Sequence record: ON645936.1
Length of the DNA stretch: 64,000 nucleotides
Source: Escherichia phage N2
Strand: one strand, 5' to 3'
The notes beneath the pieces were generated by a model. The model searched no databases. It was not told the origin of the DNA and saw only the letters and a program-made list of their open reading frames with translations. Within the stretch, counting starts at the first letter, position 1. Each line of letters starts with the position of its first letter. The translations under genes and the position numbers were made by a program. Below are positions 9,235-9,690 of this stretch, piece after piece.

Positions 9235-9690
9235 TTATTTTAAATCATCTGCCCAATCGAGTTTAAGAGGCTCTTTGTATTCACGATCTAATACGACCGG
9301 AATTTGTACATCACCGCTAAATGATAAGGGCCCAACATTATAAGACAATGTTATATGCGGTGTGTAATCATCAAAATCATGTGTAGCACCTAGTGCCCGC
9401 GCATACATGTGTCGACAGCGCAGATATTCAGAATCTAGTACAAGTACAAGAGTCGATCCATCTTGTGTTTTCCATACTTCTAAATGTCCAGAAGAAGCTA
9501 CTTCAAAACTTCCGCTTGATGGAACATATGGAACATTTACTCTTGAATAACATATGGTCGAATGAATTTTTTCTCTAGGAACTGGATTAGGAACACGTAA
9601 AGAGCGCTGGAGTTCTTCCAGCGCATCAAGTGTTAATTCTGAAAACTTAGCTGCTACATAAAGACCCGTTGAAAAGTCTTTAAATTCCAT
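9235..9690 (-). CDS. 57B: gp57B-like protein (T4 57B is the anti-CBASS cyclic-nucleotide phosphodiesterase Acb1)
   Basis: 151 aa; position immediately downstream of 57A matches T4 57B; assignment by synteny and size. Confidence 0.75.

Follow-up and report, generated by a model that had tools for sequence, protein, structure and literature searches.

An intact acb1 (gene 57B) beside the variable internal-protein locus of Escherichia phage N2

Gene order around acb1

The window is the whole 64,000-nucleotide stretch of Escherichia phage N2 (ON645936.1) that was analysed. On its minus strand, we found an uninterrupted open reading frame (ORF) that fills 9235..9690 exactly, both in the ORF listing and by direct reading. 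It starts with the ATG at 9690-9688 and ends with the TAA at 9237-9235, giving 456 nt, or 151 codons and a stop. The original prediction, which named no strand, had placed a gp57B homologue at precisely these coordinates. The features of the locus, in the direction of the minus strand, are as follows.

9932..10657, minus strand: gene 1 (dNMP kinase; Pfam DNMK, E 4e-107; T4 and RB32 gene maps), the upstream synteny anchor
10288..10295, minus strand: T4 late-promoter motif TATAAATA, inside gene 1 and 356 nt upstream of the 57A start
9690..9932, minus strand: 57A (tail-fibre assembly chaperone; Pfam GP57, E 2.6e-50; 78/80 residues identical to T4 gp57A)
9235..9690, minus strand: acb1 (gene 57B; identity with T4, PF23474, 7T26/7T27)
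9182..9230, minus strand: intergenic element with an early-type promoter-like site at 9221..9193 (repeat family D1)
8884..9168, minus strand: gene for an Ip9-like internal head protein (PHROG 7673 'internal head protein', E 1.2e-54 over residues 5-94; RB32 Ip9 annotation)
8515..8823, minus strand: gene for an Ip7-like internal head protein (PHROG 2667, E 2.1e-41; RB32 Ip7 annotation)
Downstream of the internal-protein (IP) genes, minus strand: homologues of T4 tRNA.4, tRNA.3 and tRNA.2 (tRNA.3 is 135/136 identical to T4)
7039..7554, minus strand: ORF of 171 aa (PHROG 2290, without a Pfam domain; present in RB32 as ORF135c and absent from T4)
6384..6952, minus strand: tRNA cluster (ARAGORN and Rfam)
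5677..6342, minus strand: GIY-YIG homing endonuclease of 221 aa at the segB position (PHROG 314)

Gene 1, 57A, 57B, the IP genes (8515..9168) and the tRNAs lie on one strand, as they do in T4 and RB32. The order gene 1-57A-57B-IP is the same in both of these phages, in agreement with the synteny on which the prediction had relied. Compared over 25 kb, the window and its best database matches share ~95% identity; the window thus belongs to a mosaic Tequatrovirus and not to T4 itself.

Several details were noted in the tRNA region. The GIY-YIG endonuclease gene at 5677..6342 is embedded in the tRNA cluster, likewise in T4 and RB32. In Ge15, the phage closest in 57B DNA, the tRNAs and the endonuclease are arranged differently, indicating mosaicism around 57B. 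The tRNA-Met (anticodon CAT) called by ARAGORN at 6384..6455 occupies the position of the T4 and RB32 tRNA-Ile, whose anticodon is CAU. ARAGORN also called a 94-nt 'tRNA-Lys(ttt)' at 5331..5424, where the Rfam tRNA model stays below its gathering score. This element is probably not a tRNA; its position, downstream of tRNA-Arg, is that of the T4 small stable RNAs rnaC/rnaD. The ORF at 7039..7554 sits between tRNA-Gln and the tRNA.2 homologue and has a 16-nt overlap with the ORF that follows. Scanning 4000..12000 with Rfam gave tRNAs only, with no RNA element within or beside 57B.

Identity and predicted activity of the acb1 product

The homology to gp57B is borne out at every position: the product is identical to residues 2-152 of T4 gp57B (NP_049750.1, from NC_000866) over 151/151 residues, and its C-terminus is complete, to K151. 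It matches the Pfam family PF23474 'Anti-CBASS protein Acb1' over profile positions 1-144/144 (E 2.6e-60; 202.7 bits against a curated cut-off of 27), as well as PHROG 755. It also aligns with the Acb1 of Erwinia phage FBB1 (PDB 7T26/7T27) with an E value of 4e-62 and 96 identities in 141 aligned positions (68%). The gene differs from T4 DNA by five synonymous and no non-synonymous changes, a pattern that would fit purifying selection, as expected. With a coverage threshold of 80%, the same DNA is present in 559 phage records, and in 83 of these the identity is at least 99%. The carriers are nearly all Tequatrovirus-like, with hosts in Escherichia, Shigella, Yersinia, Salmonella and Citrobacter. 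Given the PF23474 match, the identity with T4 and the presence in 559 phage records, the ORF is a real gene and no chance ORF. We also considered a divergent or inactivated acb1 copy, as in Bas43, which is ruled out by the full length and the T4 identity.

We conclude that 9235..9690 (minus strand) is, almost certainly, acb1 (gene 57B) of a Tequatrovirus phage, encoding a 2H-family phosphodiesterase that counters CBASS. None of our results argues against this assignment. It is an already known gene, and its presence here adds nothing new about Acb1.

The catalytic histidines had been left unconfirmed in the original prediction. In T4 Acb1, the catalytic HxT/HxT tetrad consists of H44, T46, H113 and T115, and an H44A/H113A mutant is inactive (PMC9117128). 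The alignment to T4 Acb1 places both 2H-type HxT/S motifs of the window protein at the positions mutated in T4, as H43-S-T45 and H112-I-T114; the numbering is offset by one since the first Met of T4 is missing in the window ORF. The nucleotide-contact residues of T4 Acb1 are Y12, W74, F107 and W147, which stack the nucleobases, and E141, which is adenine-specific (PMC9117128). All five are found in the window protein, as Y11, W73, F106, W146 and E140. The two motifs align to H-T-T and H-I-T of 7T26, and the two His, the two Thr, the Tyr, the Glu and the lid Trp are identical in that alignment. The 68% identity over 141 aa to 7T26/7T27 suggests that the window Acb1 would adopt the 2H phosphoesterase fold.

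This fold is common to Acb1 and LigT (PMC9117128), and the same product could be read as an RNA ligase or RNA-repair 2H enzyme acting on RNA ends (a LigT-like 2'-5' RNA ligase or a 2',3'-cyclic phosphodiesterase). 'RNA ligase' is indeed its name in the RefSeq records of T4, RB32 and others and in PHROG 755, and the tRNA cluster of the phage is close by. However, the name is an automated legacy of the 2H/LigT type for which we found no supporting experiment, and the curated Pfam family is Acb1. Our Pfam scan of the product (E up to 0.01) returned PF23474 only, with no LigT or 2_5_RNA_ligase family. Moreover, the identical T4 protein is a cyclic-nucleotide-degrading enzyme, whose deletion sensitises T4 to CBASS and leaves growth otherwise unaffected. 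The RNA-ligase reading is already largely refuted for the T4 protein, and we regard it as very improbable for the window gene.

The reading as a CBASS-countering phosphodiesterase draws on a well-characterised enzyme. Activity-guided fractionation identified T4 57B as the source of the 3'3'-cGAMP-degrading activity, which is abolished by its deletion (PMC9117128). The T4 reaction is metal-independent and proceeds in two steps through a cyclic phosphate intermediate, with the cut 3' of adenosine. T4 Acb1 cleaves 3'3'-cGAMP, cUA, cAAA and cAAG, but not cGG, 3'2'-cGAMP or cA4, and blocks activation of the effectors Cap5, Cap4 and CapV. On CBASS hosts, T4 Δacb1 is impaired >300-fold, and its growth is otherwise normal (all PMC9117128). 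In an independent transposon screen, 57B/acb1 was dispensable on K-12 and depleted on a CBASS host (HIDEN-SEQ preprint). The sequence identity with the T4 protein strongly argues that this enzymology and the role against CBASS would carry over to the window gene.

The predicted mechanism is thus as follows. The window Acb1 would be a small, metal-independent phosphodiesterase of the 2H family that binds 3'-5'-linked cyclic di- and trinucleotides with at least one adenosine (3'3'-cGAMP, cUA, cAAA and cAAG). The HxT/HxT tetrad would take the scissile phosphate, and the cut, made 3' of adenosine via a 2',3'-cyclic phosphate intermediate, would yield linear products. Loss of the second messenger made by the CD-NTase would keep the CBASS effectors off, and the phage would escape abortive infection.

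Loss of cyclic nucleotides could also work against the phage. Panoptes types I and II guards are triggered when decoy nucleotides are lost, and acb1 might therefore be a net liability in the hosts of this phage. Bas35-37, which are Tevenvirinae with an intact acb1, are restricted by Panoptes. It is evaded by Bas43, whose acb1 carries a nonsense mutation, and by laboratory escapers mutated in acb1 (PMC13577387). Such a liability is, however, a further consequence of the same enzymatic mechanism and not another identity. In addition, an intact ORF with synonymous-only change relative to T4 points to selection for function. We consider a net liability more improbable still than the RNA-ligase reading, and retain acb1 as a CBASS countermeasure.

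Expression of acb1 and its border with the IP genes

57A ends in a TAA whose last base is also the first of the acb1 ATG (TAATG), leaving zero intergenic space. This one-base overlap indicates that the two genes are probably co-transcribed and translationally coupled. At 9688..9693, the junction reads ATAATGG with TAA as the 57A stop, and the same is found in Ge15. In T4 the junction is ATGATGG, the 57A stop is TGA, and two tandem ATGs give an annotated protein of 152 aa with an MMEF start. The first ATG of T4 is ATA here, so that only the second ATG exists and the window Acb1 has 151 aa. The RB32 annotation of 57B is also 456 nt (151 aa). The agreement of the window, Ge15 and RB32 suggests that the second ATG may be the conserved 57B start.

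The gene had been described as early, which did not hold up. T4 Acb1 activity starts ~15 min into infection (PMC9117128), 57B/acb1 of T4 is transcribed mainly at middle/late times (preprint 10.64898/2026.03.30.715471), and acb1 has no promoter of its own in the window. Our consensus promoter scan gave no site between the overlapping genes 57A and 57B; sigma-70-like sites inside the coding sequence are at chance level (13 found, 12.0 expected). An independent early transcription unit for 57B was dropped, as the scan gave no 57B-specific promoter. Late transcripts of 57A-acb1 may arise from the late-promoter motif TATAAATA at 10288..10295. Its offset in gene 1 (363 nt from the 3' end) is equal in T4 (6006..6013 of the T4 sequence, L001), and the motif is over-represented in the window, with 24 copies against 10 expected. 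Thus, acb1 is probably expressed at middle/late times in this phage, by a transcription route that we infer from these sites.

On the other side of acb1, the window aligns perfectly with T4 and Ge15 up to ~25 nt beyond the 57B stop (column ~508); there the alignment collapses, and the IP genes come next. The gene therefore does adjoin a variable IP locus, as had been proposed. The element at 9182..9230 marks the border between conserved acb1 sequence and variable IP cassettes. The promoter scan detected its promoter-like site (9221..9193; TTTACA-17-TACTAT with a TG) downstream of 57B and facing the IP genes. The spacer between acb1 and the Ip9-like gene is 66-78 nt, depending on the choice of the Ip9 start; the true start is likely the ATG at 9156 (MKTFKEFINEA...).

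The IP locus is rich in repeats. There are three copies of the ~49-nt element with a T4-early-type promoter-like site (8462-8510, 8843-8891 and 9182-9230), which precede the tRNA.4-, Ip7- and Ip9-like genes, respectively. A 42-nt repeat, 98% identical between 8792-8833 and 9125-9166, spans the RBS of both IP genes together with codons 1-11 (MKTFKEFINEA), and the RB32 annotators recorded the same repeat as a '43 bp direct repeat'. The repeats of the IP locus (8462..9230) could mediate cassette exchange.

The original prediction had further grouped 7039..9690 into one contiguous counter-defence neighbourhood. The contiguity with acb1 and the IP locus stands; the defence role of 7039..9234 is not supported in that form, and the window contains no ipI orthologue. 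The Ip9-like and Ip7-like proteins resemble T4 IPI only at the N-terminal ~7 aa, in the leader MKTFKEF, which rules out either adjacent IP gene as an ipI orthologue; the IP genes of the window belong to other families than T4 IPI. The T4 ipI product is an inhibitor of GmrSD and, to our knowledge, the only IP with a demonstrated anti-defence role. The Ip9-like and Ip7-like proteins and four further ORFs were without a Pfam domain (E up to 0.01) or an assigned function in our Pfam and PHROG searches, and our literature search found no functions for trna.2, trna.3 and trna.4. Hobbs et al. call the acb1-ipI adjacency in T4 island-like (PMC9117128). We regard a counter-defence neighbourhood at 7039..9234 as a plausible hypothesis.

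A more speculative idea is that the 3' end of acb1 would be the fixed anchor of a cassette array of injected IPs (Ip9-like and Ip7-like in this phage, in place of IPI). Recombination between the repeats of promoter and capsid-targeting sequence would swap the cassettes, each of which would neutralise a different host defence. We hold this to be rather unlikely; if true, the cassette array and acb1 would make up a true anti-defence island.

Predicted host interactions and comparison with known systems

The window Acb1 is identical to the founding member of its family, which is characterised both biochemically and genetically, and hundreds of T4-like phages carry the gene. The practical value of this finding lies in predictive annotation, which is relevant for matching phages to hosts. 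A phage with an intact acb1 is predicted to resist CBASS systems that signal via adenosine-containing 3'-5'-linked cyclic di- or trinucleotides, and to remain sensitive, despite acb1, to those using cGG, 3'2'-cGAMP or cA4. It is also predicted to be vulnerable to Panoptes-type guards that sense cyclic-nucleotide depletion. The finding will also help to correct the persistent 'RNA ligase' and 'hypothetical protein' labels.

Known relatives of the window gene range from distant to identical. The Acb1-named 9Q2G (165 aa) is a distant family member of the same name and not a close relative: it is only marginally similar to the window Acb1 (E 0.0044, 20 bits), in an alignment that spans both H-containing motifs. 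FBB1 Acb1, with structures of the apo form (7T26) and of the 3'3'-cGAMP complex (7T27), shares the HxT/HxT tetrad, the Y, the E and the W of the C-terminal lid. It differs from the window protein by the conservative aromatic swaps W73 -> F and F106 -> Y and by a one-residue indel after window residue 79.

For 6960..9234, the best match is RB32/RB33, with 94% DNA identity, and the order ORF135c-tRNA.2-tRNA.3-tRNA.4-Ip7-Ip9 is common to RB32/RB33 and the window. RB32 carries an extra Ip5 between Ip9 and 57B; the window lacks it, and its Ip9-like gene is the immediate neighbour of 57B. For acb1 itself, the counterpart is T4 gp57B/Acb1 (Hobbs et al. 2022, PMC9117128), which has the same 151-residue sequence, the same tetrad and ligand contacts, and the same position after 57A and gene 1. 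The two differ in the additional residue of the T4 annotation, in five synonymous nucleotides and in the downstream neighbour, which is ipI in T4 and the Ip9-like gene in the window.
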